A stretch of DNA of 63,751 nt, filler included, from an uncultured bacterium (GTDB taxonomy: Bacteria; DYJV01): NCBI GenBank assembly GCA_964543655.1. It is 4 parts of 4 records of this genome, joined end to end, with 100 filler letters (N's around TTAATTAATTAA, not from the genome) between each part and the next. Parts side by side here need not be neighbours in the genome. Positions count along the whole stretch, not along the records: positions 47,747 to 60,598 come from CAZIZE010000049.1; 3 more parts are not named here. The stretch is one strand, 5' to 3'. The notes beneath the pieces are model-generated. The model saw only the letters and a list, made by a program, of their open reading frames with translations. It was not told the DNA's origin and searched no databases. Made by a program: the position numbers and the translations under genes. Shown in pieces: positions 21,080 through 60,698 of this stretch. The number at the start of each line of letters is the position of its first letter. The first letter of the stretch is position 1.

Positions 21080-21179
21080 NNNNNNNNNNNNNNNNNNNNN
21101 NNNNNNNNNNNNNNNNNNNNNNNTTAATTAATTAANNNNNNNNNNNNNNNNNNNNNNNNNNNNNNNNNNNNNNNNNNNN
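21080..21179. other. Artificial contig linker
   Basis: N-run, TTAATTAATTAA (stops in six frames), N-run. Confidence 0.98.
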
Positions 21180-23624: not shown

Positions 23625-23975
23625 TTAATCTTTTAAATATTGAGTGGCACTTTCTAAATTATCAAATAGTGGCAATATTTGATTAAAACCTGAAACATTA
23701 AAAATATTTCTTACTTGTTCGTTTAAACCGTATAAAATAAACTTTTTCCCTTTTTTATCAAGCTCTTTTGCCACCACTAAAACTCCTCTTAATCCAGCGC
23801 TGCTTATATATCTGAGCTCTGACATATCTAAAAGAATATCTTTTGGTTCTTTAACTTTTGCAAGCAAGCTATTGGTAAATTTTTTGTATGTCTCTGCGTC
23901 TAAATTTCCTGACACTGTTACTATGATGTAATTATTTTTATTTAAAGAATTTAAAAACATAGCACTAATAATCAT
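23625..23975 (-). CDS. STAS-domain anti-sigma factor antagonist
   Basis: SGNLDA, LDMSELRYISSAGLR, VRNIFNVSGF. Confidence 0.9.
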   Translation of the reverse strand: MIISAMFLNSLNKNNYIIVTVSGNLDAETYKKFTNSLLAKVKEPKDILLDMSELRYISSAGLRGVLVVAKELDKKGKKFILYGLNEQVRNIFNVSGFNQILPLFDNLESATQYLKD

Positions 23976-30823: not shown

Positions 30824-30907
30824 TTGGCATGTTGGCAGTTATCTGTTGGCAGTTAGTATATTAGCCTAAAGAAAATATACAATTTATGTAGTGGCACTTT
30901 CTTTGCA
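30824..30907 (+). promoter_or_regulatory. Consensus sigma-54 promoter with upstream direct repeats
   Basis: TGGCAC-TTTCT-TTGCA at 30892-30907; GTTGGCAGTTA at 30831-30841 and 30845-30855, TTGGCA at 30824. Confidence 0.8.
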
Positions 30908-30948: not shown

Positions 30949-31329
30949 ATGATGAAAAGATGTATTAGTATTTTAAGTTTTTTAGTAATTTTTTTGATTG
31001 GAGGAGTTATTAATTCATTTGCTTTTTGTGTGTATAACTATAGTGATGTTGTGGTTTCAGCAACTCAATGCTCAGGATATAAGAATTATTTTGTTGGCTT
31101 TAAAGAGACAATTGATCCTGGAAAGAAAAAATGTTGTAACTGGAAAAATAAAGAGTGCAACAAATCTGGTAAAAAAGATCAAATAATAAGTTTTGAAGCA
31201 AGTTATGAATATGTAACACCTGACCATAATGCAGTTATAGAAAGAAAAATTTGTGTAGTTCAATTTAAAGCAGGAGGAAGGCTTATAGTGAAAGGGAAAA
31301 AAGGTAATTATTGGTGTGAAACTAAATAA
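30949..31329 (+). CDS. Small secreted Cys-rich, Lys-rich protein
   Basis: AGGAGG RBS, signal peptide ending SFA, seven Cys in mature part incl. FCVYN and CCNWKNKECN. Confidence 0.85.
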   Translation: MMKRCISILSFLVIFLIGGVINSFAFCVYNYSDVVVSATQCSGYKNYFVGFKETIDPGKKKCCNWKNKECNKSGKKDQIISFEASYEYVTPDHNAVIERKICVVQFKAGGRLIVKGKKGNYWCETK

Positions 31330-47646: not shown

Positions 47647-47746
47647 NNNNNNNNNNNNNNNNNNNNNNNNNNNNNNNNNNNNNNNNNNNNTTAATTAATT
47701 AANNNNNNNNNNNNNNNNNNNNNNNNNNNNNNNNNNNNNNNNNNNN
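47647..47746. other. Artificial contig linker
   Basis: N-run, TTAATTAATTAA, N-run. Confidence 0.98.
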
Positions 47747-47989: not shown

Positions 47990-49993
47990 TTAATTATAGA
48001 GATAAATTATTACTTTTGTCCCCTTCCCTTTTTGAGATTCTATTTTTATATCTCCACCTAAATTTTTAACTATAGATAAACTAATAGCAAGCCCTAATCC
48101 AGTTCCATCTTTTTTGGTTGAATAAAAAGGATTAAAAATTTTTCTAAGGTTTTCACTTTCAATACCAATACCTGTATCTGAGAAAATTATCTCAACAATA
48201 TTTTCCTCTTTGTCCAATGATATGGTCAGGGCACCCTCTCCCTTTTCTCTTATTGCATCAATTGCATTAAGTATAATATTTGTAAAAACCTCCCTTAATT
48301 GTGTTTCATAAGATTCAATTACAACTTCCTGTTTAAAATCTAAGTTTATAGGAATATTTAATTTTTTCAACGGTTCAGTAATCTCTTTTATAAGGCAGTT
48401 TATATTTATTTCTTTAAAAGTTGAATCTGTCTTTTTTGAAAACTGTAGTAATCTATCTATTATCTTTTGCATTCTAATAACCTGCTCTTTTATTAACTGC
48501 ATTTCTTTACTTGTAGAAAATCCCTTTTCTTCAAGATATACTTCAAGTAGTTCAATATTTCCTCTAATGATAGCTATCGGAGTATTGATCTCATGGGCAA
48601 CCCCACCTGCAAGAGCACCTATTGCAGCAAGTTTTGAAGTGTGGACAAGCTCACTCTGCAATTCTCTATATTTTGCAATGAGATTCTCTTTTTCTTCAAT
48701 TAATTTGTATAACTCTTGCCTTGCATTTATTAATTCCACATTTTTCTTTTCTAATTCTGCTGTTCTATTTTTAACTTTATTTTCAAGATTACTGTAAAGT
48801 TTATTTATTGCCTCATCTTTATCCTTTAATGCTTTAATCATACTATTAAATTCCATTTGAACACGACCAATTTCATCATCAGTTTCAATTTCAACAAAGT
48901 CTTCATAATTCCCTTTTGCAACTTTTTTAATACTCTCTTCAAGATGTGTAATAGGCGCAACTATCCTTTTGGCAAATATAAGTGAAACTATAAATGTTAA
49001 ACCTGCTCCAAGAAGAAGTAAAGAAATAAAAATTAAGGAAATATTATCTCTTATTTTATTAAAAGGTTCTTCAAGAACTCCAACATATAAAGAACCAATA
49101 ATGTCATTTTTTATATTATAAATAGGTTCATAAGCTGTAATATACCACGCATTTACAACAAAAGCTCTATCTATCCATTTTTCTCCATCAACTATCACTC
49201 TATTGTAAACCTCTTTTGACAATCTTGTACCTACAGCTCTTTTTCCACTTTTTAATCTAACATTAGTAGAAATTCTTAAATCACCCATAAATATTGTAGC
49301 TGTACCAATAGCTTTGTTACCAAAAACTGTTTCCTTTATTTTATCAACAATATAATAATTTTTATTCAACAAAACTCCACCATAAATTGCACCTATAATT
49401 CTATATTTTTCATCATAAATAGGAGCTGATGCTATTAATACCATTCCTGATGTTTCTATCTTTTGCTTTGTAGGTATGGCTTTGGGAGTTGGTATAAGCT
49501 TTGTTTTTGCAATTTCCGCTAATTCCTTACCCTCTGCTTTTAATTTTTCAGAGTTCCATATTTCTGTGGAAACCACAGTTTCACCAATTAAAGCTTTTCT
49601 AATAACTGAGTCATTTCCCATGTAATCACCTTTATTTTCAGGGTTTCTTGACCTGACCATTACATAACCGTTTTTATTCACAATGGAAATAAAATCAAGA
49701 TGCTCCTCTACTCTAATTCTCTGAATTTCAGCAAGTAACATATTTGTATCATGCTTTGTAATGGAATGCTTTATAAGGTAAAGTTTTGATGAAAATTTTA
49801 AAATATTTTTAATTCTGTCAAGTTCATTGTAGTAAATTTCATGTGCTGAATTTAAATCATACTGCACTTTATTTTGAGCTAATTTCCTGATATAATAATC
49901 AATTAGATAAATGGAGATTCCAGAAAATAAAAAAAACATCAATAAAGTTGGAATAAGGAAAAATAAAGGAATTTTCTTTTTAAGAGTTTTCAT
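47990..49993 (-). CDS. Cache/HAMP sensor histidine kinase
   Basis: ATIFMGDLRISTNV...GKRAVGT Cache motif, HAMP DEIG, VAHEINTP, PFYSTKKDGTGLGL. Confidence 0.93.
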   Translation of the reverse strand: MKTLKKKIPLFFLIPTLLMFFLFSGISIYLIDYYIRKLAQNKVQYDLNSAHEIYYNELDRIKNILKFSSKLYLIKHSITKHDTNMLLAEIQRIRVEEHLDFISIVNKNGYVMVRSRNPENKGDYMGNDSVIRKALIGETVVSTEIWNSEKLKAEGKELAEIAKTKLIPTPKAIPTKQKIETSGMVLIASAPIYDEKYRIIGAIYGGVLLNKNYYIVDKIKETVFGNKAIGTATIFMGDLRISTNVRLKSGKRAVGTRLSKEVYNRVIVDGEKWIDRAFVVNAWYITAYEPIYNIKNDIIGSLYVGVLEEPFNKIRDNISLIFISLLLLGAGLTFIVSLIFAKRIVAPITHLEESIKKVAKGNYEDFVEIETDDEIGRVQMEFNSMIKALKDKDEAINKLYSNLENKVKNRTAELEKKNVELINARQELYKLIEEKENLIAKYRELQSELVHTSKLAAIGALAGGVAHEINTPIAIIRGNIELLEVYLEEKGFSTSKEMQLIKEQVIRMQKIIDRLLQFSKKTDSTFKEININCLIKEITEPLKKLNIPINLDFKQEVVIESYETQLREVFTNIILNAIDAIREKGEGALTISLDKEENIVEIIFSDTGIGIESENLRKIFNPFYSTKKDGTGLGLAISLSIVKNLGGDIKIESQKGKGTKVIIYLYN

Positions 49994-50007: not shown

Positions 50008-51345
50008 TTACATGCTTTTTAGCTTTCTATCTATTGTTTTCCTTGAAACTTTTAAAAGTTCTGCTGTTTTTAATTTATTCTTTCCAGTTAAAAGGTAAAC
50101 TCTTTTAATATAATTTTTAACCACTTCATCAAGAGGAAGAATGGTATTGATATTATCCTTAGTTACCTCAACTTTGCTGAGAATATCATTAGGTAGACAA
50201 TCTATATTAAAAATATCTTTCTTCATTAATAACACACTTCTCTCTATTATATTTTGTAATTCTCTAATATTACCTGGCCAATTATAATTTTCAAGAATCT
50301 TAAAAACTTCTTCATCTACTCCTCTAACAACTTTTTTAAATTTTATTCCAAAAAGTTTAACAAAATATTTTACCAGAGGTGAAATATCCTCTTTTCTCTC
50401 CCGTAAAGGTGGAATATTTATTGAAATAACATTTAACCTATAATAAAGGTCTTTCCTGAAATTACCATTTTCAACCTCCCTTAAAAGCTCTTTGTTGGTA
50501 GCTGCAATTACTCTTATGTCAACCTTTTCTATCTTTGAAGAACCAACAGGGATAAACTCTTTCTCCTGTATCAGTCTGAGCAACTTTGCCTGAATTTTTG
50601 GTGAAATTTCTGTAATTTCATCTAAAAAAAGAGTGCCACCATCAATTTCTTTTAAAATTCCTTTATGGTTTCTCATTGCTCCAGTAAAAGCTCCTTTAAT
50701 ATGCCCAAATAGGTGACTTTCAAATAGATTTTCTGTTAAAGTAGAACAATTTACTGGAAGGAAAATATTATTATTTCTATCACTAAAGTGGTGAATATAC
50801 TTTGCAATTAATTCCTTACCTGTGCCAGATTCACCCTGAATGAGAACAGTAGAGTTTGTAGTAGCAACACTTTTTGCAAGCTCTAACACTTCGTACATTT
50901 CTTTACTTTTATAGATTATGCAATCTGGTGAAAATCGAGTTTTTAAAATCTCCTTTTTTAATTCTCTGTTTTCACGGTGTAGAGCATATTTTTCACAACA
51001 ATTTTTTATTAACTCTATTATTTTTTCTTTTGGAAATGGTTTTGTAACATAATCATAAGCTCCATTTTTCATAAACTCAACTGCTGATTCTACATCTCCA
51101 TAAGCAGTCATAACAACAACAGGAAGTTCTCTGTTTACTTTTTTTATTTTTTCGAGAATTACACTTCCATCAATATCTGGAAGTTTGACATCTAAAAGAA
51201 CAGCATCTACCTGATTATTTTTTATAAAGTTGTATCCATCTTCTCCTGTTTCAAATGTAAAAACTTCATAACCTTTAATTTGAAACAGTTTTTCAAGAAA
51301 ATGCAGCATTCCTTTCTCATCATCAATTATTGCTATTCTAAACAT
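50008..51345 (-). CDS. NtrC-family sigma-54 response regulator
   Basis: Receiver DVKLPD; GESGTGKE; canonical GAFTGA; WPGNIRELQN; HTH. Confidence 0.94.
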   Translation of the reverse strand: MFRIAIIDDEKGMLHFLEKLFQIKGYEVFTFETGEDGYNFIKNNQVDAVLLDVKLPDIDGSVILEKIKKVNRELPVVVMTAYGDVESAVEFMKNGAYDYVTKPFPKEKIIELIKNCCEKYALHRENRELKKEILKTRFSPDCIIYKSKEMYEVLELAKSVATTNSTVLIQGESGTGKELIAKYIHHFSDRNNNIFLPVNCSTLTENLFESHLFGHIKGAFTGAMRNHKGILKEIDGGTLFLDEITEISPKIQAKLLRLIQEKEFIPVGSSKIEKVDIRVIAATNKELLREVENGNFRKDLYYRLNVISINIPPLRERKEDISPLVKYFVKLFGIKFKKVVRGVDEEVFKILENYNWPGNIRELQNIIERSVLLMKKDIFNIDCLPNDILSKVEVTKDNINTILPLDEVVKNYIKRVYLLTGKNKLKTAELLKVSRKTIDRKLKSM

Positions 51346-51359
51346 TGATTGTATAATGA

Positions 51360-54056
51360 TTAAAATTTTAACCTTTTGTCAATAGAAATTTTAATTTTTC
51401 CAGTTTTCGGATTTCTTTCTATTGTGCCTGGAGGTAAAATTTCCACTTTTAAAGGTGCTGCAAGTCCTTTTTCAACCACTGTTTTTATTTCTTTGCAATG
51501 TTTATAAACTTTTTCTTCCAATTTTTTAGCTATAATAGAATCATTTTCAGAAAAATTTTCCTTTTTTTCAGCTTTAATTATTAATATATCTCTGAATCCA
51601 TCTAAATCTGCTATCATTTGAAAATATTCCGATAGCTCTTCAACTTCATGCACAGCAGAAGCAATTGTTTCCGGTTGAATATTAACACCTCCAATAATTA
51701 ATATTTCATCTGCTCTTCCTAATAATTCAAAAAGGCGAGTATTTCTACCACATACACATTTTCCTTCAATCCATCTTCCAAGATCACCTACATCGTATCT
51801 AATAGTTGGCATGAGAGTTCTCTGAAGATTTGTTACTACAATTTTTCCAATCTCTCCAGGTTTTACTGGTAAACCTGTAGATATATCAAGTATTTCAACA
51901 TAATGAAGATCTTCATGTACATGATGAATTCCACCACAACATTTTTTACATTGATATCCTATAGCTCCTGTATCATTTGTTGTGTAGCCAGTTGAGTAAA
52001 ATTCTTTAATTTCAAGTATCTCTTTTAAATACTCTTTTGCTCCTTCAAAAAGATGCTCTCCTCCTGTGATTGCTTTTTCAATTTTTAAATCATTAATCTG
52101 GTTTTTTTCCACATAGTTGGCTATGCTAATTAAAACAGAAGGTATTGTAATCACAGCATTAGCTTTGAATAGCCTTAAATAATTAACAATTTCAATCCCT
52201 ATATTACCTGCAATTGGAAGTATCTGACAGCCTGTATGTTCAAGTGCCTGATTAAATGAAACAAAAGAAGCCCATAGATTACCTGCAAATAAAAGATTTG
52301 CAACTACATCTCCTTTTTCCAGTGTTGATAAAGCCAAACCTTTGCCTAATTTTAATGCATTATAATGTTGTTCTTCATGAGTTCTGTAAACTAATTTGGG
52401 AGAACCTGTTGTTCCACCACTTGAAAATATATATCCACTTTTAACAGAAGAGGTTAGTAATCCATTTCCATAAGGAGGAAGAAACTTTTTATAATCATCC
52501 CCTGTCATTAGTGGAAATTTTAAAAAATCCTCAAAATTCTTTAATTCAAGACCTTTATACCTTTCAGCAAGTAAAGGAGATTTTTCTCTGCAGTAATTTA
52601 CAATGTATTGTAATCTTGAAAATGTTACTTTATCTCTTTTATCATCAGGTAAAAAATCAAAATAATCTTCTTCTTTATCATATTTTTTCCAATTAATTTT
52701 AAAGGTAGATGCTTCAATGGTATCTCTTGATAGTGATATCCATTTAACAAGTTCTCCCAATCCCCTTGAACCATCATGAGGAGTCCCATGTTTTCTAACA
52801 GACATTTTTCCTGGTTCAACAAATCTATCAGCTCCTATATCTGCAAGTTTCATAGAAATCTTTTTAGCATCCTCATCTGATGTTACAAGTGCAACTGTTT
52901 GAAAAAAATTTCCCATATCTTTAATATAAACTAAAATCTCATCAATATTTTTTACTGGTTTAATTATTATAGTTCTGTGAAGACAAGAGGTTTGAAAGGA
53001 TGGATTTTTATTAAGAATAACTGTCCATTTTAAATCAGATGAAAATCTATAATCTGAAATTTCCATAGCTTTTTCAACTTTTGCAAGCTCTCTTAATTTT
53101 GTTATTTCTGTTGCTGAATCGTCATCTATTCTTCCTTTGGGATAAATATGAGACCAATATTCTAAATCTTCAGATAACTGATATAATAGTTGTTCTGCCA
53201 CATCGTAGCTGTTTATATAAACTACATGAGGAGATGAACATGCAGATTGTTCCCACATTGTTACATCTTTTGCAATTAATCTTGAGACATTTTTTATCCC
53301 TCTTTTCATTAATTCATTGCTGTCAACAATTACAAAACTATACTTTGGTCCATATTCAATTAATTTAGTATGTAATCCAAGACCATCTCTATAACTTTTT
53401 ATAGTTTCAGCTCCACCATAAACTACAATTCCATTACATCTTGTTTTCAAAACACTCTCTATTTCTTCGTCTCCACCTTTCCATGGAATAATTGCTAAAG
53501 ATTTATACAAAATTCCAGTTTCATCAACAGTTTTAAGACTTTCTGCAAATAAAATGGGAAAAATTGGATCATTGGAAGACATTTTCATTATGTTGACATT
53601 TTTTGTAATTATACCCTGAATAAGGCTATCAACGCCTCCAACAAAAACATTTCCTGCAGAAATATGGGCAACAATACCAAGAGGTTGAGCTTTTATATAT
53701 CCTTTAAAATTTTCATCAAGAACCCAATTGTCTAAATATCTGTAATTTCCAAGGTCAGTATTTAATCTTGTAAAAATACTTTCTTTTCTTAATAAATCTA
53801 TCATTACTTCAATTCCAGCTTCAACCATTTCCTTACTAAAACCAATATAATTTGGAACCATTTTTAACGCTTCTTTTCTGTAAAAAAATTCACTATCACT
53901 CCATTTGTTTGCAAGAGTATCCAGAATTTCTATTATTTTTTTTATAGAAATTTTTTTTATCTCTTTTTTCAAATTTTCAGCTTCATTTAAAATATTATTT
54001 ATTATGTTTTTATCTATTTTTTCATCAAGTATGTTTCCAAATATATAATTTTTCAT
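51360..54056 (-). CDS. LuxC-type acyl-CoA reductase fused to a PaaK-like adenylate-forming domain
   Basis: N-half PLG.VAHISAGNV, YGG, YGPKYSF, EQSACSSPH, HDG...L.ELV; C-half FSSGGTTGSPK, GGEH, YTTNDTG, RYDVGD, GRAD, KTGKIK. Confidence 0.88.
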   Translation of the reverse strand: MKNYIFGNILDEKIDKNIINNILNEAENLKKEIKKISIKKIIEILDTLANKWSDSEFFYRKEALKMVPNYIGFSKEMVEAGIEVMIDLLRKESIFTRLNTDLGNYRYLDNWVLDENFKGYIKAQPLGIVAHISAGNVFVGGVDSLIQGIITKNVNIMKMSSNDPIFPILFAESLKTVDETGILYKSLAIIPWKGGDEEIESVLKTRCNGIVVYGGAETIKSYRDGLGLHTKLIEYGPKYSFVIVDSNELMKRGIKNVSRLIAKDVTMWEQSACSSPHVVYINSYDVAEQLLYQLSEDLEYWSHIYPKGRIDDDSATEITKLRELAKVEKAMEISDYRFSSDLKWTVILNKNPSFQTSCLHRTIIIKPVKNIDEILVYIKDMGNFFQTVALVTSDEDAKKISMKLADIGADRFVEPGKMSVRKHGTPHDGSRGLGELVKWISLSRDTIEASTFKINWKKYDKEEDYFDFLPDDKRDKVTFSRLQYIVNYCREKSPLLAERYKGLELKNFEDFLKFPLMTGDDYKKFLPPYGNGLLTSSVKSGYIFSSGGTTGSPKLVYRTHEEQHYNALKLGKGLALSTLEKGDVVANLLFAGNLWASFVSFNQALEHTGCQILPIAGNIGIEIVNYLRLFKANAVITIPSVLISIANYVEKNQINDLKIEKAITGGEHLFEGAKEYLKEILEIKEFYSTGYTTNDTGAIGYQCKKCCGGIHHVHEDLHYVEILDISTGLPVKPGEIGKIVVTNLQRTLMPTIRYDVGDLGRWIEGKCVCGRNTRLFELLGRADEILIIGGVNIQPETIASAVHEVEELSEYFQMIADLDGFRDILIIKAEKKENFSENDSIIAKKLEEKVYKHCKEIKTVVEKGLAAPLKVEILPPGTIERNPKTGKIKISIDKRLKF

Positions 54057-54067
54057 TGAAATCCCCT

Positions 54068-55204
54068 CTATATTTTTTTTACTTTTAATAGTTCAGCTGC
54101 TGTTATAGCACATCCCTGATGTTTTTTAATACCAGCTCTTCCAACAAGGATTATATAATCACTATTTCTTCCACATTTACAATTTTTCTCAATTATACCA
54201 TAATCTGTTGATAATACAGAAATATTAGGTTGGGCTATATTGTAGGGTGAAATCATGTGAAGCATCCCTTTTTCACCATAGGTTAACAGTTTTAAACTAC
54301 CTGGTTTTCTAACAAAAACTTTTGAATATATTGGAACATGAAAATTCCCAAATTCACAGGTAATATATGGCACTCCATGTTCTACAAAACCATAAACATC
54401 TCTTATTTGAGTTCTGCTGATTCCAAGGTATTTTTCTACATAATTGTAGAATTTACTTTTGGGAATTTCCTCATCTGCCATGGCTTTCCAGCCACCAGCA
54501 AATATTATTAAACTATCTTTATTGGAAAAATTAAATTTAATATTTTTTTGATCAAGATATTGTAAAGTCTTCCATGCAAATGCGGGAAATCCTATTATTC
54601 GTAATGGTAAATTGGTTTTAGAAAATTCTTTCAATATTTCAGTACATTCAGCTGGATCAAAAAACTCTTTTCCTTCCCAATCAGAATGAATTGCAAAAAA
54701 TTTTCTATTAGCAGGAGCAAAATTTGTATACATAGTGTGAGCATAAGGAGCACCTCTATCTCCTGCAATATCAGGAGAATATGTAAAGCAAAGATAATTA
54801 ACCTTTGTGCTGGTGATTAGACCATAATTTTCCATAATTTTATTTCTCATTGTTTTCTGTCTTTCAAATGACTCTTTATCCCATGATATATGGCTTTTTT
54901 CTCCAGTGGTTCCACTTGATGTAAAAGTTTTTACAATTTTATCATCTGGAACCGAGGTTAAATGATATTTTTTAAAAACATTAACCATAATCCATGGAAT
55001 TTTTGAAATATCTTCTGGATTATTTAAAGAATCAGGATAAAAGTTTTCTTGATTGCATAATTTTCTATAAACAATGCAATTATTATAATGATGAGTAAAA
55101 ACTTCTTTTAAGGCAAAGAAAAATATTTCTTCTATTTTTGTATCTTTTTCAAGAACATTCTTTTCATTAAAAAGCATTGATAAGTATTTAAATTTATTTT
55201 TCAT
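54068..55204 (-). CDS. luxE: LuxE-type acyl-protein synthetase
   Basis: FTSSGTTG, GGWK, RDVYGFVEH, LSTDYG, GRAG...GCA acylation-site region. Confidence 0.88.
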   Translation of the reverse strand: MKNKFKYLSMLFNEKNVLEKDTKIEEIFFFALKEVFTHHYNNCIVYRKLCNQENFYPDSLNNPEDISKIPWIMVNVFKKYHLTSVPDDKIVKTFTSSGTTGEKSHISWDKESFERQKTMRNKIMENYGLITSTKVNYLCFTYSPDIAGDRGAPYAHTMYTNFAPANRKFFAIHSDWEGKEFFDPAECTEILKEFSKTNLPLRIIGFPAFAWKTLQYLDQKNIKFNFSNKDSLIIFAGGWKAMADEEIPKSKFYNYVEKYLGISRTQIRDVYGFVEHGVPYITCEFGNFHVPIYSKVFVRKPGSLKLLTYGEKGMLHMISPYNIAQPNISVLSTDYGIIEKNCKCGRNSDYIILVGRAGIKKHQGCAITAAELLKVKKI

Positions 55205-56499
55205 TCCTTCACCCTTTCATCTATTAATTTTTTTATTTTACCAGTTATTTTGTTTCTTTCAAGTGTCCCAAGTTTAACAAATTCTATATTAAAAAATTTT
55301 ATATAATCAATTGAAAGTCCTGTTTTAATTTCAGGAATATTTTCTATGATTTCCTTTTTAATTAAATCTAAATATTTCTTAGATTTTTCAGGGTTACCAG
55401 ATTCAATTTTAAGAGATAATGCAATTTTATTTCCTATATCCTCAATTTCAAAGCAATAATTCATGCTTATAGAGTTTTTTCCTGCAAATTTCCCAATAGC
55501 CTTATCAAAAATATTCATTGAGATATATGCTCCACCAAGTTTAAAATCATCTCCAGCTCGTCCGCATAGTGTGTATAGTGGATTGGTATCATTGCATTTA
55601 CATGCCCCCTTTTTCCAATAAGCAACATCTCCTATTTTATACCGTATTATTGGCATTGATAATCTTGCAAGGTTGGTAACAAGTATTTCTCCCTCTTCAT
55701 TATATTCACAAGGTTTATTTTTTTCAAAATCCCAGATTTCAATACATTGAAACTTAACAGGTAGATGATACTCATTAGGTTTACAATATTCACATTGATA
55801 TCCCATTAAACCAGCATCTGCACTTGTGTATGCTAATGCTTTAATATTGTTGACTTTTAAAGTCTTGCTTATATAATCTCTAACCTCTTTACTCATATGC
55901 TCTCCAGCATAGAGAATTGTGTGAAGTCTGGTAAATTTTTTTCCTTTTTCATTTACCTTATCAGCAAGAAACACAAATAAGGTAGGTAAAGATATTATTA
56001 CAGTTGGTTGAAATTCTAAACAATAGTGATAAATTTTTTCTATATCAATATTTGCAGAAATAGGTAAATGAATAGCACCAATTTTTTTTATAACATCATG
56101 TGAAGCAATAAATGAAGGCCATAAACTTCCTGCAACAAAGATATTTGCAATTATATCACTATCTTTAACTCCTAATTTCTTAAAGGCAAATGCCTGCATA
56201 TCAACAAATTTATCCCATTCTTCATAGGTTAATACTGTATATCTTGCAATACCAGTTGAGCCTCCAGTAGATGTAACAATAAAATTTTTTTCAGGAATGG
56301 TGAGCATATTTAAAGTTTTTGGATATGAATTTTCATAAAGTTCCTGTCTGGTCAAAACAGGAAGCTGTTGAAAATCCCCAAGCCTATTAACTATTAAACC
56401 TTTGTATTTATTTTTATAAAATGGAGCTTTCTTTGAATTCTCAAAAACCTTTTTTATTAGAGCAAACTGTTCATTATACATCATTTTAAGATACCTCAA
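55201..56499 (-). CDS. Phenylacetate-CoA ligase (PaaK)-like adenylate-forming enzyme
   Basis: APFYK, TSTGGSTG, YAGEH, YTSADAG, MPIIRYKIGD, GRAGD, ITGKIK. Confidence 0.85.
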   Translation of the reverse strand: MRYLKMMYNEQFALIKKVFENSKKAPFYKNKYKGLIVNRLGDFQQLPVLTRQELYENSYPKTLNMLTIPEKNFIVTSTGGSTGIARYTVLTYEEWDKFVDMQAFAFKKLGVKDSDIIANIFVAGSLWPSFIASHDVIKKIGAIHLPISANIDIEKIYHYCLEFQPTVIISLPTLFVFLADKVNEKGKKFTRLHTILYAGEHMSKEVRDYISKTLKVNNIKALAYTSADAGLMGYQCEYCKPNEYHLPVKFQCIEIWDFEKNKPCEYNEEGEILVTNLARLSMPIIRYKIGDVAYWKKGACKCNDTNPLYTLCGRAGDDFKLGGAYISMNIFDKAIGKFAGKNSISMNYCFEIEDIGNKIALSLKIESGNPEKSKKYLDLIKKEIIENIPEIKTGLSIDYIKFFNIEFVKLGTLERNKITGKIKKLIDERVKE

Positions 56500-57850
56500 C
56501 TATGAATTTATGTTTTAACCGAGCATTGTAACTTTTAATGTCTTTAAGTTTTACCTCAATTAATCTTTCTCCAACAATGGAATAAAGATGATTGTATTTA
56601 AACTTAAACTCATTGCTATCCTCAAATAAAAAATCGAGCAGGGCTGATTTATATTTTTCTTTTAATTGTGTTGATTTGTAGTCTTTGGTTGTGTAAATTA
56701 AAAAAGTAAAAATCTGGATGCCTTCAACATTTTGTGTCTGTACCTGATACAATCCACCATAATTATATGATTTATCAAGACCTAAAAGGAAATTTTGTAT
56801 TTCTCCTATACTTAGGTTAGTCCCATAAAAAATAATGCTATCACTTGTTCTTCCATATACATAGAGCATTTTTTCAGGAAGAGAGTTTAATAAATTTTCA
56901 GGAACAATATTTTTAATTTTATCAGTATACAGCAATCCACCTCTATCTTTTGTGTTATACCTTATTAAAGGAACAATTTGGTCTTTGGTGACAATTATTT
57001 CTTTATTTACAATTTCAATGTAAGGTTTTGGTGATAATTCAAAAATCATTGGAGTATCCTTGGTACCAAATATTTTTTCTGATAGTTCAGGATTTTTAAA
57101 AAAATATTTTCTCAAGTTTATGGTTGCTTCTGTTTCAATACCAATATCACCTGTATCAGCAGAGCCAAATCCTGTCCATATAGAAAATTGATAATCCTTT
57201 TCATGTCCAAAATCTTCAGCTATCTTTATTCTCATTCTTTCACTAAAATACTCACCAACAACAGGAAAAAATATATTTCCATTTTTATAATTTATTCCAT
57301 TTCTATCCATTAATGCCTTAATCAAAGGAATATTTGAAGGATTTGTAATTATTAAGGTTTGGTCAATATGTTTTTCCACTAATTTATAAATTTCAACAGC
57401 TTCAATTAAGTTCAAACCAGGAGTGGAACAGATTATTTTGTACTTATTTGTTACAGAGAGATACCTTATAGTAGATGCAATCTGCATTCCACCAATCCAA
57501 GTTCCAAAAGCAAGACACACAAGAATCAAGGTATTTTTATTATTAATTTGATAAATTTTTATTAAAAAGTTTTCCACATTTTTTAAATAATCTTTTTCAT
57601 CTTCAGGTCTTTTAGGCCAAAAAATTGAGCCAGAACTTCCAAATCCTGATGAAGAACCTATCAGGTGAGCTTTATCAAGTTCACCATTCCAGCAGAGTTC
57701 TTCTAATTTGTATTTTAAAAGATAGTTTTCTTTTGTTGTAAAAGGTATATCTTCCCATTTTGTATTACAATTTATTTTATTTTCAATAGAGAATTTTCTG
57801 TATGCAGGAACTTTTTCTATGACTTTTTTAAGTAGCATATATTTATCCAT
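56486..57850 (-). CDS. PaaK-like adenylate-forming enzyme with divergent P-loop
   Basis: VPAYRKF, GSSSGFG, VGEYFSE, FGSADTG, PLIRYNTKDRG, YGRTSD. Confidence 0.8.
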   Translation of the reverse strand: MDKYMLLKKVIEKVPAYRKFSIENKINCNTKWEDIPFTTKENYLLKYKLEELCWNGELDKAHLIGSSSGFGSSGSIFWPKRPEDEKDYLKNVENFLIKIYQINNKNTLILVCLAFGTWIGGMQIASTIRYLSVTNKYKIICSTPGLNLIEAVEIYKLVEKHIDQTLIITNPSNIPLIKALMDRNGINYKNGNIFFPVVGEYFSERMRIKIAEDFGHEKDYQFSIWTGFGSADTGDIGIETEATINLRKYFFKNPELSEKIFGTKDTPMIFELSPKPYIEIVNKEIIVTKDQIVPLIRYNTKDRGGLLYTDKIKNIVPENLLNSLPEKMLYVYGRTSDSIIFYGTNLSIGEIQNFLLGLDKSYNYGGLYQVQTQNVEGIQIFTFLIYTTKDYKSTQLKEKYKSALLDFLFEDSNEFKFKYNHLYSIVGERLIEVKLKDIKSYNARLKHKFIVEVS

Positions 57851-59048
57851 TTTTTATCTCCCTGTTAGATAAGATTTTTAACTCTTTAATAAAAAAGGTA
57901 AATATTCCTGTTAAAAAAATTATTATTCCACTTATTATCAACATTGTTGAAGATGTTATTTTATCCAAAATAATTCCTGTTACACCATAAGAAAGAGGTT
58001 GCATAGATAGGGCAATTCCTGTAATTATAGCCATAACCTTTCCCCTGTTTGTAAAAGGTATTAATTCTTGAAACATAACTATTAATATTATATTTAAAAC
58101 TGTTAAACATAATCCTGCCATAAATAGAGAAATTAAAGAAACATTAAAATTTAAAAATACTCCCATAATGAAAAATGAACATCCCATAACTAAAAAACTT
58201 ACAATTAATATTAAAAGTTTATTAAATTTTTTAAAAAATGAAAGTAAAATTGTTCCTAACAACATACCTGTTCCAAATGCACTCATCATATAGCCAATAC
58301 CTGCTGCGCCAAGATGAAAAATTCCTTCAGCAACAATTGGCACAATTATTACAACTGATGAAAAGAAAAAATTAACAATAACAATTGGTAGTAATAGTTT
58401 TTTTAAAATAGGTATATTAATAACTTCTAAAAAACTATTTTTAGCATTGATAATAGAAGAACTAACCTTATCAAATAATATTGTTACATTCATTTTAAGT
58501 ACAAAAAACATTGAAAAGAAAAAAGAGAATGAATTAAACAAAAATGCCATTGGCACACCAATTATTGAAATTATAGCACTTCCAAATAACGGTCCAATAA
58601 CAGCACTTGCACTATTACTCATCTGATTAAGTGCATTTGCATTTGTTAAATATTTTGATGGGATTAATTCTGGTAACAATGCTAATGCAGATGGATTAAA
58701 AAAAGCTGATGCAATGGAAAGAAAGATTGATATTACAATAAGAATTTTATAATTGAGAAATCCTTTTAAAGAAATATAAAAAAGGGAAAACACAAGAAAA
58801 CCTCTTATTAAATCAGCAAGAGCCATTATTTTGGATTTATTAAACTTATCTACAACAGAACCAGCATAAGGAGAAATAAGAATTCCAGGTAATGTAGTAG
58901 CAATCATTATTCCTCCAACAGCAGAGGAGGATTGTGACCATTTATATGTAATCCATAATAAAGCAAGAGAATGAATCCTGTCTCCAAGCTGTGAAACAAG
59001 TTGAGCAACAAAAAGATATCTATAATTTTTATATTTTAATATTTTCAA
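57843..59048 (-). CDS. MFS transporter (DHA3/macrolide-efflux-like)
   Basis: AQLVSQLGD, AGSVVDKFNK, FFNPS..A.LPELI, FQELIP...RGKV; about twelve TM helices. Confidence 0.88.
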   Translation of the reverse strand: MKILKYKNYRYLFVAQLVSQLGDRIHSLALLWITYKWSQSSSAVGGIMIATTLPGILISPYAGSVVDKFNKSKIMALADLIRGFLVFSLFYISLKGFLNYKILIVISIFLSIASAFFNPSALALLPELIPSKYLTNANALNQMSNSASAVIGPLFGSAIISIIGVPMAFLFNSFSFFFSMFFVLKMNVTILFDKVSSSIINAKNSFLEVINIPILKKLLLPIVIVNFFFSSVVIIVPIVAEGIFHLGAAGIGYMMSAFGTGMLLGTILLSFFKKFNKLLILIVSFLVMGCSFFIMGVFLNFNVSLISLFMAGLCLTVLNIILIVMFQELIPFTNRGKVMAIITGIALSMQPLSYGVTGIILDKITSSTMLIISGIIIFLTGIFTFFIKELKILSNREIKNG

Positions 59049-60534
59049 AGTTTTGCCAGTTATACTCTTCTTTTATAAAATTAAAAATTTTTTTTGCATC
59101 ATTTCCTTCAATATTAAGTAATTCAATATCTAAATCATTAATTAAAAATTGCATTTTAAATATGTCATTACCATTTAATTCAAATGGAGAAATGCAGCTG
59201 AAAATAAAACCAATATCAAATAATTTATCCATTAAAATATCACATCCTTCCTGTTCAAGAGGGAGATCAATATATATAACTTCTGCAGATGTCTTCATAG
59301 TTAAAAATAAAAAACCTTTTTTTATTAAATTAAAACTGTCTTTTCCAACTTTCTTTACTGTAATTTTTCCAAAATCCCATCCAGGAAAATAGTTTGTTAT
59401 AACTTCTCCATGTTCCTCTACTATTTCATTTGAGTTTAAAATTTCAGGTTCAGGAAATTTTCCATTAGTATAAATAAATTTCACAATATTGGCATATTTT
59501 TCAGATACAAATATTCTTTTTTTATATGGGAATATTAGTGGTTTAAAATAATACATACAAGATTCTCTTTGAGATAATGGTTCTTTTTTTAGTCTTTTAA
59601 AATGCAATGTTTTTGGAACAAGCCCAAGTAAAATTCCAAACGGTTTTGAACCAAACTTTATATTAACTTTTTGACTCATTGTATAACTTGTAACTGGTTG
59701 ACTGTACAAACCTTTTAATCCTATTTGTTTTGCTATTTCTTCAAGTTTATTTCTCATTTTTACCATTAATTTTCTATTTCTATGCTCAGGAACTACAATT
59801 GCCTGGCCAGTTTCTGCTATATCTCCTAAATCATATCTCTCAAGTGCATAATGTCCTACAACATTATCCTTTTCATCAGTGGCAACAACACCAATCAATT
59901 TTCCTGATTGATTTAATTGTTTTATTTTTTCTGGATAATACAAATCTTCATTTGGATAGGAATATCCATATGCTCTATAGATACATTTAGCAACCTGAAG
60001 ATATTCATTGTCTCTAATTCTATGAATATCATATTTTTGCGGTGGTGCTAAATCTATGTTTTTTTCACTTGAAAATAATTTTTCCTGGGAGATATCAATT
60101 AACTCTGTAATATCTTTTACTGGAAGATTAAAAGATATTTTTAGCTCTTTTCCTTTTTTTCCATGGTTTAACCATTCAACTTTATCAGCTATTTTTTCTA
60201 TTAAAAAAATTCTTAAAGAATCGTCCTGTATCTCTTTTTTCAAAGGTTTAAATGGTTTTGTTTCTTCTGGAGCATAGGGTATCCCTTTATCATAGAAACA
60301 AAGGGTTAACTTATAATTTTCAATATAGGTGGTTATAATAATCTCCCCTGTTTCATCTGGTTCATACGAATGATTAATTGTGTGAACTAATGCTTCTTCA
60401 GTAATTAAGATAATTTTATTAGAAAATGTTTTATCAATTTTTAATAATTCAATAAAAGACTCTACAAAATTCTTTGCCAGAGAAATATACAAAGGATTAT
60501 TGTAGATAATAAGAGAAGCTTTTAGATTATCCAT
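59029..60534 (-). CDS. RsbW-like HATPase domain fused to GNAT-fold domain(s)
   Basis: LITEEAL...INHSY, DKGIPY, FLIEKIADKV; then VVGHYAL, ETGQAIVVPEHRNRKL, SQKV. Confidence 0.78.
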   Translation of the reverse strand: MDNLKASLIIYNNPLYISLAKNFVESFIELLKIDKTFSNKIILITEEALVHTINHSYEPDETGEIIITTYIENYKLTLCFYDKGIPYAPEETKPFKPLKKEIQDDSLRIFLIEKIADKVEWLNHGKKGKELKISFNLPVKDITELIDISQEKLFSSEKNIDLAPPQKYDIHRIRDNEYLQVAKCIYRAYGYSYPNEDLYYPEKIKQLNQSGKLIGVVATDEKDNVVGHYALERYDLGDIAETGQAIVVPEHRNRKLMVKMRNKLEEIAKQIGLKGLYSQPVTSYTMSQKVNIKFGSKPFGILLGLVPKTLHFKRLKKEPLSQRESCMYYFKPLIFPYKKRIFVSEKYANIVKFIYTNGKFPEPEILNSNEIVEEHGEVITNYFPGWDFGKITVKKVGKDSFNLIKKGFLFLTMKTSAEVIYIDLPLEQEGCDILMDKLFDIGFIFSCISPFELNGNDIFKMQFLINDLDIELLNIEGNDAKKIFNFIKEEYNWQNFENIKI

Positions 60535-60598: not shown

Positions 60599-60698
60599 NN
60601 NNNNNNNNNNNNNNNNNNNNNNNNNNNNNNNNNNNNNNNNNNTTAATTAATTAANNNNNNNNNNNNNNNNNNNNNNNNNNNNNNNNNNNNNNNNNNNN
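60599..60698. other. Artificial contig linker
   Basis: N-run, TTAATTAATTAA, N-run. Confidence 0.98.

Follow-up and report, generated by a model that had tools for sequence, protein, structure and literature searches.

The window analysed here is a 63,751-nucleotide (nt) stretch of DNA from an uncultured bacterium, and its subject is a cassette of six minus-strand genes that encode, in order of transcription, an RsbW-like/GNAT protein, an MFS transporter, two stand-alone PaaK-type ligases (PaaK1 and PaaK2), a LuxE-family enzyme, and a fusion of a LuxC-family reductase to a third PaaK-type ligase domain (PaaK3). Six tightly coupled genes had been described at this site in an earlier reading of the sequence alone (the original prediction), and all six open reading frames (ORFs) are found again at the same positions, with the same junctions (overlaps of 20, 8, 14, and 4 nt, then an 11-nt gap). 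The single-contig setting given in that reading has to be corrected. The window consists of four contigs (C38, C39, C49, and C60) strung together, which makes gene neighbourhoods across the joints artificial; the linkers, of the form N44-TTAATTAATTAA-N44, lie at 21080–21179, 47647–47746 (on the start side of the cassette contig), and 60599–60698. The cassette and the two-component genes downstream of it fill one 12,852-base contig (47747–60598), the end of which is 64 nt upstream of the first gene. Because this contig stops at 60598, the genes from 60817 onwards are not neighbours of the cassette.

The first gene (59029–60534, on the minus strand like the five that follow) encodes a protein of 501 amino acids (aa) with Pfam matches to HATPase_c_2 (E 1.7e-10) and Acetyltransf_1 (E 1.3e-4). 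It is followed by the gene for an EntS/Mef-like MFS transporter, presumed to be an exporter (57843–59048; 401 aa; MFS_1, E 7.1e-36; MFS_3, E 5.2e-33; TIGR00900, E 1e-52). PaaK1 (56486–57850; 454 aa) is a very divergent adenylate-forming ligase that is assigned to the PaaK fold by fold comparison, and PaaK2 (55201–56499; 432 aa) is a stand-alone ligase with an AMP-binding match in Pfam and matches to the PaaK and DVU_1553 families in NCBIfam. The LuxE-family acyl-protein synthetase (54068–55204; 378 aa; Pfam LuxE, E 1.1e-47) and the LuxC–PaaK3 fusion (51360–54056; 898 aa; LuxC, E 4.9e-90, with AMP-binding and AMP-binding_C_2) complete the cassette. In terms of the leupeptin (leup) operon, to which these genes are compared below, PaaK2 is of the LeupC type, the LuxE-family protein of the LeupA type, and the fusion of the LeupB type. 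The start codons of the MFS and PaaK2 genes are TTG, as picked mechanically by the ORF lister. No carrier, condensation, ketosynthase, or thioesterase domain occurs among the Pfam matches of the eight proteins of the contig. The G+C fraction of the cassette (0.283) is close to that of the genome (0.297), which comprises 2,261,978 bases in 102 contigs and is 94.29% complete.

The catalytic residues expected of a LuxC–LuxE pair are retained. The LuxE-family protein carries the P-loop FTSSGTTG at residues 94–101, GGWK at residues 237–240, and a C-terminal GCA at residues 364–366 that includes Cys365; GGWK and the C-terminal GC are present in all of 58 homologues. In the fusion, the LuxC reductase domain spans residues 34–439 (window 52740–53957) and the PaaK ligase domain residues 472–898 (window 51363–52643), with matches in the PDB to LuxC 7xc6 (E 1.1e-46) and PaaK 4r1l (E 2.9e-42), respectively. 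The motif QSACSSP (residues 270–276) contains Cys273, which is invariant in 19 fusions. The three motifs that the original prediction had named, QSACSSP, FTSSGTTG, and the C-terminal GCA, are all in place. According to PMC9157457, from which the functions of the catalytic LuxE and LuxC residues are assigned here, the acid is loaded in an ATP-dependent manner on the C-terminal cysteine of LuxE, passed to the cysteine of LuxC, and reduced with NADPH to the aldehyde. The substrate of the present LuxE/LuxC pair is likely to be an acyl-peptide rather than myristate. The genome contains a single LuxC match, and a search of this 94.29%-complete assembly gives no match for luciferase LuxA/LuxB (Bac_luciferase, PF00296) or for LuxD (Acyl_transf_2, PF02273), which extends to this assembly the absence of luxA, luxB, and luxD that had been noted for the contig.

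The two stand-alone ligases differ in how readily they can be classified. PaaK2 belongs to a group in which the hinge RYxxGD and the C-terminal [ST]GK are kept in 44 of 44 homologues. PaaK1 matches no Pfam model, nor does any of 24 members of its family; its NCBIfam PaaK match is weak (E 6.9e-5), and a profile of the family has no significant match to PDB sequences (E 0.087). Its predicted model, however, has a pLDDT of 88.3 and is matched by Foldseek to Burkholderia PaaK1 (2y27) with an E of 7.8e-19, and PaaK1 is thus by predicted structure only a PaaK-fold enzyme, so that the label "PaaK-like 1" of the original prediction holds at the level of fold. In a tree of the ligase domains PaaK1 forms a separate clade on a long branch. 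The family is large: it comprises 903 representative clusters at a cut-off of E ≤ 0.001, and 129 of these still match at 1e-30. Of eight members scanned, six match no Pfam family; a ThiF fusion occurs in one, and a further member combines the ligase with both ThiF and a Glu/Leu/Phe/Val dehydrogenase domain.

The 501-aa protein combines three parts in its predicted model (pLDDT 88.1). Residues 1–140 (window 60115–60534) have the fold of the anti-sigma kinases SpoIIAB and RsbW, with a VIA Z of 17.6 to 1l0o_A (residues 2–140; 137 residues aligned at a root-mean-square deviation of 3.0), a Z of 16.2 to RsbW 6m36, and a Z of 13.6 to SiaB 6kko. Residues 166–338 (window 59521–60039) form a GNAT acyltransferase domain (Z 13.7 to 9cr5_B over residues 166–335), and residues 339–501 (window 59032–59520) are a conserved C-terminal part to which no fold is assigned. 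The "HATPase" of the original prediction therefore stands as far as the HATPase_c_2 domain is concerned, but this domain is of the partner-switching RsbW/SpoIIAB type and not a generic ATPase, and for this reason it points to regulation rather than catalysis.

The gene set as a whole has a characterised counterpart. The operon leupABCD, with an adjacent MFS gene, was reportedly described by Li et al. in 2020, in Angew Chem, from Klebsiella michiganensis/oxytoca, and is said to occur also in Photorhabdus and Xenorhabdus. PMC8283571 reports how large the leup operon is and what its four genes are called, mentions the neighbouring transporter, and lists leupA_f and leupB_r as primers; a 2026 preprint names the same five components and uses an operational definition of at least 90% identity to a reference. 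The leupA_f primer matches eight metagenome contigs, all of which also carry leupB_r, at a spacing of 1,235 bp in six and of 1,280 and 1,209 bp in the other two; the loci taken from these contigs extend only 2 kb to each side of the primer site. In the Klebsiella locus (L094), leupA_f lies at the start of a 378-aa LuxE-family ORF (LeupA). An MFS gene stands before this ORF, and behind it comes a LuxC-family ORF (LeupB) that the end of the locus cuts short. Among 401 sampled genomes of the class of Marichromatium, only three LeupA-like matches are found at E ≤ 1e-20, and none is close.

An orthologous leup-type cassette on a conjugative IncF plasmid of Salmonella enterica (CP053580.1; L103, 5158–12693) serves as the reference for LeupB, LeupC, and LeupD. 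It encodes a LuxE-like protein that is 73% identical to Klebsiella LeupA, an 802-aa LuxC–PaaK fusion that is 62% identical to the N-terminal part of Klebsiella LeupB, and a 433-aa PaaK ligase, together with a GNAT gene that is split into two ORFs and a truncated MFS remnant; it looks like a decaying copy. Genes for insertion sequence (IS) transposases directly follow the split GNAT gene.

Against these references, the LuxE-family protein of the window aligns to Klebsiella LeupA with 35% identity across 358 aa (E 1e-80, 240 bits) and is 24% identical to true LuxE (93 bits). The fusion is 22.9% identical to Salmonella LeupB over 778 aa (E 3e-55) and has the same two-domain architecture. Salmonella LeupC is matched by the PaaK3 domain with an E of 1.3e-41 and by PaaK2 with an E of 3e-30 (22.8% over 425 aa), and PaaK1 gives no BLAST match to Salmonella LeupB or LeupC. 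The profile of the GNAT family matches the two Salmonella LeupD pieces at positions 165–242 (E 5.1e-13) and 261–325/403–450 (E 1.5e-8); as these alignments begin at profile position 165, LeupD corresponds to the GNAT and C-terminal parts of the 501-aa protein and is without the N-terminal domain. By sequence comparison, four of the five leup components thus have a homologue in the cassette, and the MFS transporter corresponds by class only. The statement in the original prediction that no characterised pathway could be recognised is accordingly superseded.

The distance is bridged by a five-gene cassette in a genome of the same genus (G001; contig C49 of that genome, locus L120, 6837–14539), which encodes a LeupA-like protein, a LuxC–PaaK fusion, a PaaK ligase, an RsbW-like/GNAT protein, and an MFS transporter. 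Its LuxE-family protein, fusion, and ligase are 49, 39, and 39% identical to enterobacterial LeupA, LeupB, and LeupC, and 36, 28, and 29% identical to their counterparts in the window. The GNAT protein of L120 has the N-terminal extension of the present protein, to which it is 26% identical over 470 aa, and the two MFS transporters are also 26% identical. The enzymes of L120 are nearer to those of enterobacterial leup than are the enzymes of the present cassette, which indicates, at the level of sequence, that the genus has two cassette types, one in each genome, and that the five-gene type links the present cassette to the enterobacterial operon.

The cassette is real, widely shared, and not an orphan. 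Of 8000 candidates that were scored, 230 are related to the fusion at E ≤ 0.001. The top 120 are 43–72% identical to it, nearly all over almost their full length, and carry only general names such as "acyl-CoA reductase" or "AMP-binding protein." Scanning one genome per species with the fusion gave 104 pattern matches; 97 of these held up, and the final set comprises 80 loci, many of which are short contigs. In these 80 loci the LuxE gene is present in 70, the GNAT-protein gene in 56, the PaaK1 gene in 50, the PaaK2 gene in 47, and the MFS gene in 44, and all six genes are found together in 32, in several permuted orders, so that the synteny anticipated from the single locus is borne out. The loci span many phyla. 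Their sources are metagenome-assembled genomes labelled Bacteroidales, Muribaculaceae, Prevotella, Rikenellaceae, Geobacteraceae, Desulfurellales, Acidobacteria, Campylobacterales, and others, as well as isolates of Marichromatium gracile and Rhodopseudomonas palustris. In the small phylum of the host, PaaK1 occurs in the present genome only, among six species genomes.

These relationships are best accounted for by an enlarged and distant leupeptin-type pathway that is free of carrier proteins, in which a small N-acyl peptide aldehyde would be made by stand-alone ATP-dependent ligases and not by a nonribosomal peptide synthetase (NRPS); on balance we consider this reading probable. N-acylation of the first amino acid would fall to the GNAT part of the 501-aa protein, which resembles LeupD. 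PaaK2, the PaaK domain of the fusion, and PaaK1 would each activate a carboxylate by adenylation and couple it to the amine that follows. The LeupA-like LuxE homologue would then adenylate the final carboxylate and load it on Cys365, the acyl group would pass to Cys273 of the LuxC domain, reduction with NAD(P)H would yield the aldehyde, and the MFS transporter would export the product. Because four activating enzymes are present as compared with the three of leup, the product may contain one more unit than leupeptin or a different cap. The chemistry and the order of these steps are deduced throughout; they are built on observations of domain composition, retained catalytic residues, gene linkage conserved across loci, and homology to leup. 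In the light of that homology, the activation of several acids, the reduction of one of them to an aldehyde, acyl transfer by the GNAT, and export through the MFS, all proposed in the original prediction, are upheld; its description of the system as undescribed is not.

Several observations weigh against the leupeptin-type pathway and have to be set beside it. The amino-acid nature of the substrates is an assumption taken from the leup homology, and identities to the leup proteins are low (23–35%). The LuxC domain stands slightly nearer to true LuxC (28% identity, 152 bits) than to the N-terminal part of LeupB (24%, 81 bits); the match between the MFS transporter and that of Klebsiella leup is not significant (E 0.023); and the ligase-domain tree leaves open the relations among the clades of PaaK2, the PaaK3 domain, LeupC, and the ligase domain of LeupB. 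PaaK1 could have a different role, since its large family is found mostly outside such cassettes. Motif A of the GNAT domain reads HRNRKL here, as compared with RGRxL in most homologues. In this branch the RsbW-like domain is without the asparagine of what we take to be the N-box and the glycines of what we take to be the G2 motif (EEALVH and DSLRIFL), whereas other branch members keep N and GxG. Finally, no STAS or PP2C gene, of the kind that flanks the cassette elsewhere, adjoins it on the cassette contig of this genome.

Among the alternatives, a pathway with the same enzyme logic and a non-peptide product fares best, although we regard it as rather unlikely. Carboxylates other than amino acids (for example aryl or hydroxy acids) and amines (for example polyamines) would be combined into an amide-linked aldehyde or an amine-derived metabolite, for instance one that resembles a siderophore or acts as a signal. 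The PaaK-fold enzymes matched in the PDB do use such acids, namely phenylacetate, 2-hydroxyisobutyrate, and 3-amino-4-hydroxybenzoate (ClxA); the transporter is EntS/MFS_3-like; and the strong divergence of PaaK1, together with the fusion of some of its relatives to ThiF or dehydrogenase domains, would fit a substrate of this kind. What favours the peptide aldehyde over this alternative is that the complete gene set has a single characterised relative, whose products are acyl tripeptide aldehydes, and that four of the five components of that relative have sequence homologues here, with the MFS transporter corresponding in class only.

A second alternative concerns the role of the product and is compatible with the leupeptin-type pathway. 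The fusion gene is followed on the same strand, with 14-nt gaps, by the genes for a sigma-54-dependent response regulator (50008–51345; 445 aa; Response_reg, Sigma54_activat, and HTH_8) and then a Cache/HAMP sensor histidine kinase (47990–49993; 667 aa; sCache_3_3, HAMP, HisKA, and HATPase_c). The kinase is the partner of the regulator, and the pair is locally linked to the conserved cassette but lies outside it. The product, or a pyrazinone derived from it, might be a cell–cell signal sensed by this pair in an autoinducer circuit, for which the arrangement of the genes and a precedent in Klebsiella speak, where a leupeptin-derived pyrazinone is described as an autoinducer in PMC11480411. Such a circuit seems improbable here, because a two-component system related to the present one accompanies the cassette in none of the 80 loci, where kinase-core matches are scattered and 21–28% identical and no close relative of the sigma-54 response regulator stands beside the cassette, and because the cassette contig contains no sigma-54 promoter consensus.

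The remaining alternative, a fatty-acid reductase of the Lux type whose fatty aldehydes or alcohols would go into lipids or waxes, with the extra ligases acting as acyl-CoA synthetases, is very improbable: it would account for the LuxC and LuxE Pfam domains with their catalytic cysteines and for the identity of the LuxC domain to true LuxC, but the NCBIfam scores are far below the equivalog cut-offs (203.9 as compared with 750 bits for LuxC; 112.5 as compared with 550 bits for LuxE), LuxD and luciferase have no match in the genome, the LuxE-family protein is nearer to LeupA than to true LuxE, and the conserved GNAT, the exporter, and the three PaaK-type ligases would be without a role.

For the leupeptin-type pathway, the fused RsbW-like domain raises the question of regulation. 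Its missing N-box asparagine and G2 glycines make a role in binding more likely than one in phosphorylation. In related loci the cassette is flanked by genes for a STAS protein, which keeps the serine motif YISSAGL, an RsbW-type kinase, and a Cache–HAMP–PP2C phosphatase. In the flanks up to 3 kb from the cassette (305 kb in total) there are 29 STAS, 29 PP2C, and 17 RsbW genes, and farther out (320 kb) there are three, none, and two, respectively, in counts that favour the cassette-linked subfamily since the queries were drawn from cassette-linked examples. For the STAS gene, the distance to the cassette has a median of 12 bp. Within 6 kb, STAS is found in 34, PP2C in 31, and RsbW in 22 of the 80 related loci; the 31 loci with a phosphatase have a separate kinase in 18 cases, a kinase fused to the phosphatase in 11, and neither in two. 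As a full partner-switching set exists in these loci beside the RsbW-like domain that is fused to the GNAT, that domain is likely to be the output end of the switch. Most likely it is a docking site for a STAS-domain protein, and the first step of the pathway would then be under partner-switching control. An expected correlation was tried and failed: gut Bacteroidales forms are also without the N-box asparagine, yet have the kinase fused to the phosphatase.

A more far-reaching proposal combines the two unusual features of the cassette, and we put it forward tentatively, as a possibility with the odds against it. A Cache–PP2C/STAS/RsbW pathway would gate the assembly line through the fused RsbW-like receiver, and the fourth ligase would lead to hitherto unknown peptide aldehydes that are longer or differently capped and made without an NRPS. 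Such aldehydes would, on the same proposal, be protease inhibitors or signals of the pyrazinone type. The cassette itself is found in many anaerobes, gut Bacteroidales among them.

Two sites elsewhere in the genome carry genes of the partner-switching type. An orphan STAS gene (23625–23975, minus strand; 116 aa) lies between genes for a CobW/HypB-type GTPase and for an outer-membrane efflux protein, on another part of the window; it is a candidate for the partner of the RsbW-like domain, because it is the top match in this genome of all four cassette-linked STAS proteins that were compared. The start of a 9,999-base contig (C86; 137–2459) carries genes for a STAS protein, at 137–472, a HAMP–PP2C phosphatase of the SpoIIE family, and an RsbW-type kinase. 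This trio is the top match in the genome of the cassette-linked PP2C and RsbW proteins, and its link to the cassette is unproven because unrelated genes (aminotransferase and molybdenum hydroxylase) come next.

The surroundings of the cassette can be extended on one side. The first 141 nt of the cassette contig (47747–47887) are identical to the last 141 nt of C85 (61802–61942; 61.9 kb), an end that carries housekeeping genes for CoaE, an amidohydrolase, and RodZ. The two contigs are probably adjacent in the genome, by this sequence overlap, which would place housekeeping genes (CoaE and amidohydrolase) after the histidine kinase gene. The upstream end of the cassette contig has no end overlap with any other contig of the genome; in the protein database, these proteins are assigned to a contig of 87.8 kb. 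A scan for promoters and terminators gave 74 promoter-like sites, as compared with 75.4 expected, and is uninformative in such AT-rich DNA. The single exact sigma-54 consensus of the window (TGGCAC-N5-TTGCA; 30892–30907, plus strand) is on a contig other than that of the cassette and lies about 40 nt upstream of an ORF at 30949–31329. At the end of C39 (42191–46608, plus strand), a gene of the AMP-binding acyl-CoA-synthetase type is followed by genes for a PAS histidine kinase with RsbRD_N and for a second sigma-54 response regulator.

In the literature searched, from which subscription journals are mostly absent, no description of the six-gene form was found; as far as that search extends, the form is uncharacterised, and its kind is already known from the leupeptin operon. 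Leupeptin-type pathways make bioactive peptide aldehydes with few free-standing ligases and tend to be missed by genome mining based on NRPS domains, and the product of the present cassette could be a protease inhibitor or signal that is common in sediments and guts but has gone unnoticed. The fourth ligase raises the question of whether product length is set by how many ligases there are. The most interesting point is the link between partner switching and a biosynthetic enzyme: if the role of the fused RsbW-like domain is as proposed, a biosynthetic enzyme would be controlled post-translationally by partner switching.

Three known systems provide a frame for comparison. As in the LuxC–LuxE fatty acid reductase of luminous bacteria (PDB 7XC6), the lysine loop with GGWK, the C-terminal GC, and the cysteine of LuxC are kept; unlike in that system, neither LuxD nor LuxAB has a match, LuxC is fused to a ligase, and the family scores stay below the equivalog cut-offs. 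The RsbU–RsbV–RsbW, SpoIIE–SpoIIAA–SpoIIAB, and SiaABC modules share with the cassette the SpoIIAB/RsbW fold, and in related loci also the presence of STAS, kinase, and PP2C genes next to it. They differ in that the RsbW-like domain here is fused to a biosynthetic acyltransferase, has no sigma-factor target, and has degenerate ATP motifs, and in that the partner genes are not adjacent in this genome. In SiaABC of Pseudomonas aeruginosa, too, the output is an enzyme.

The closest comparison is with Klebsiella leupABCD and its MFS gene, with which the cassette shares a LuxE-family enzyme, a LuxC–PaaK fusion, a PaaK ligase, a GNAT with a C-terminal extension, and, by class only, an MFS transporter, as well as the lack of carrier and condensation domains. 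The differences are that the cassette has six genes and not five, with PaaK1 as the additional ligase, another gene order, and another regulation; that an RsbW-like domain precedes the GNAT, which enterobacterial LeupD is without; and that the MFS transporter belongs to another subfamily than that of Klebsiella leup. The leup-type cassette L120 of the same genus also differs from the present one in being without PaaK1. Given its six genes, its extra PaaK1 and RsbW-like domain, its different gene order, and identities of 23–35%, the present cassette is a relative of the leup operon and not the leup operon itself.

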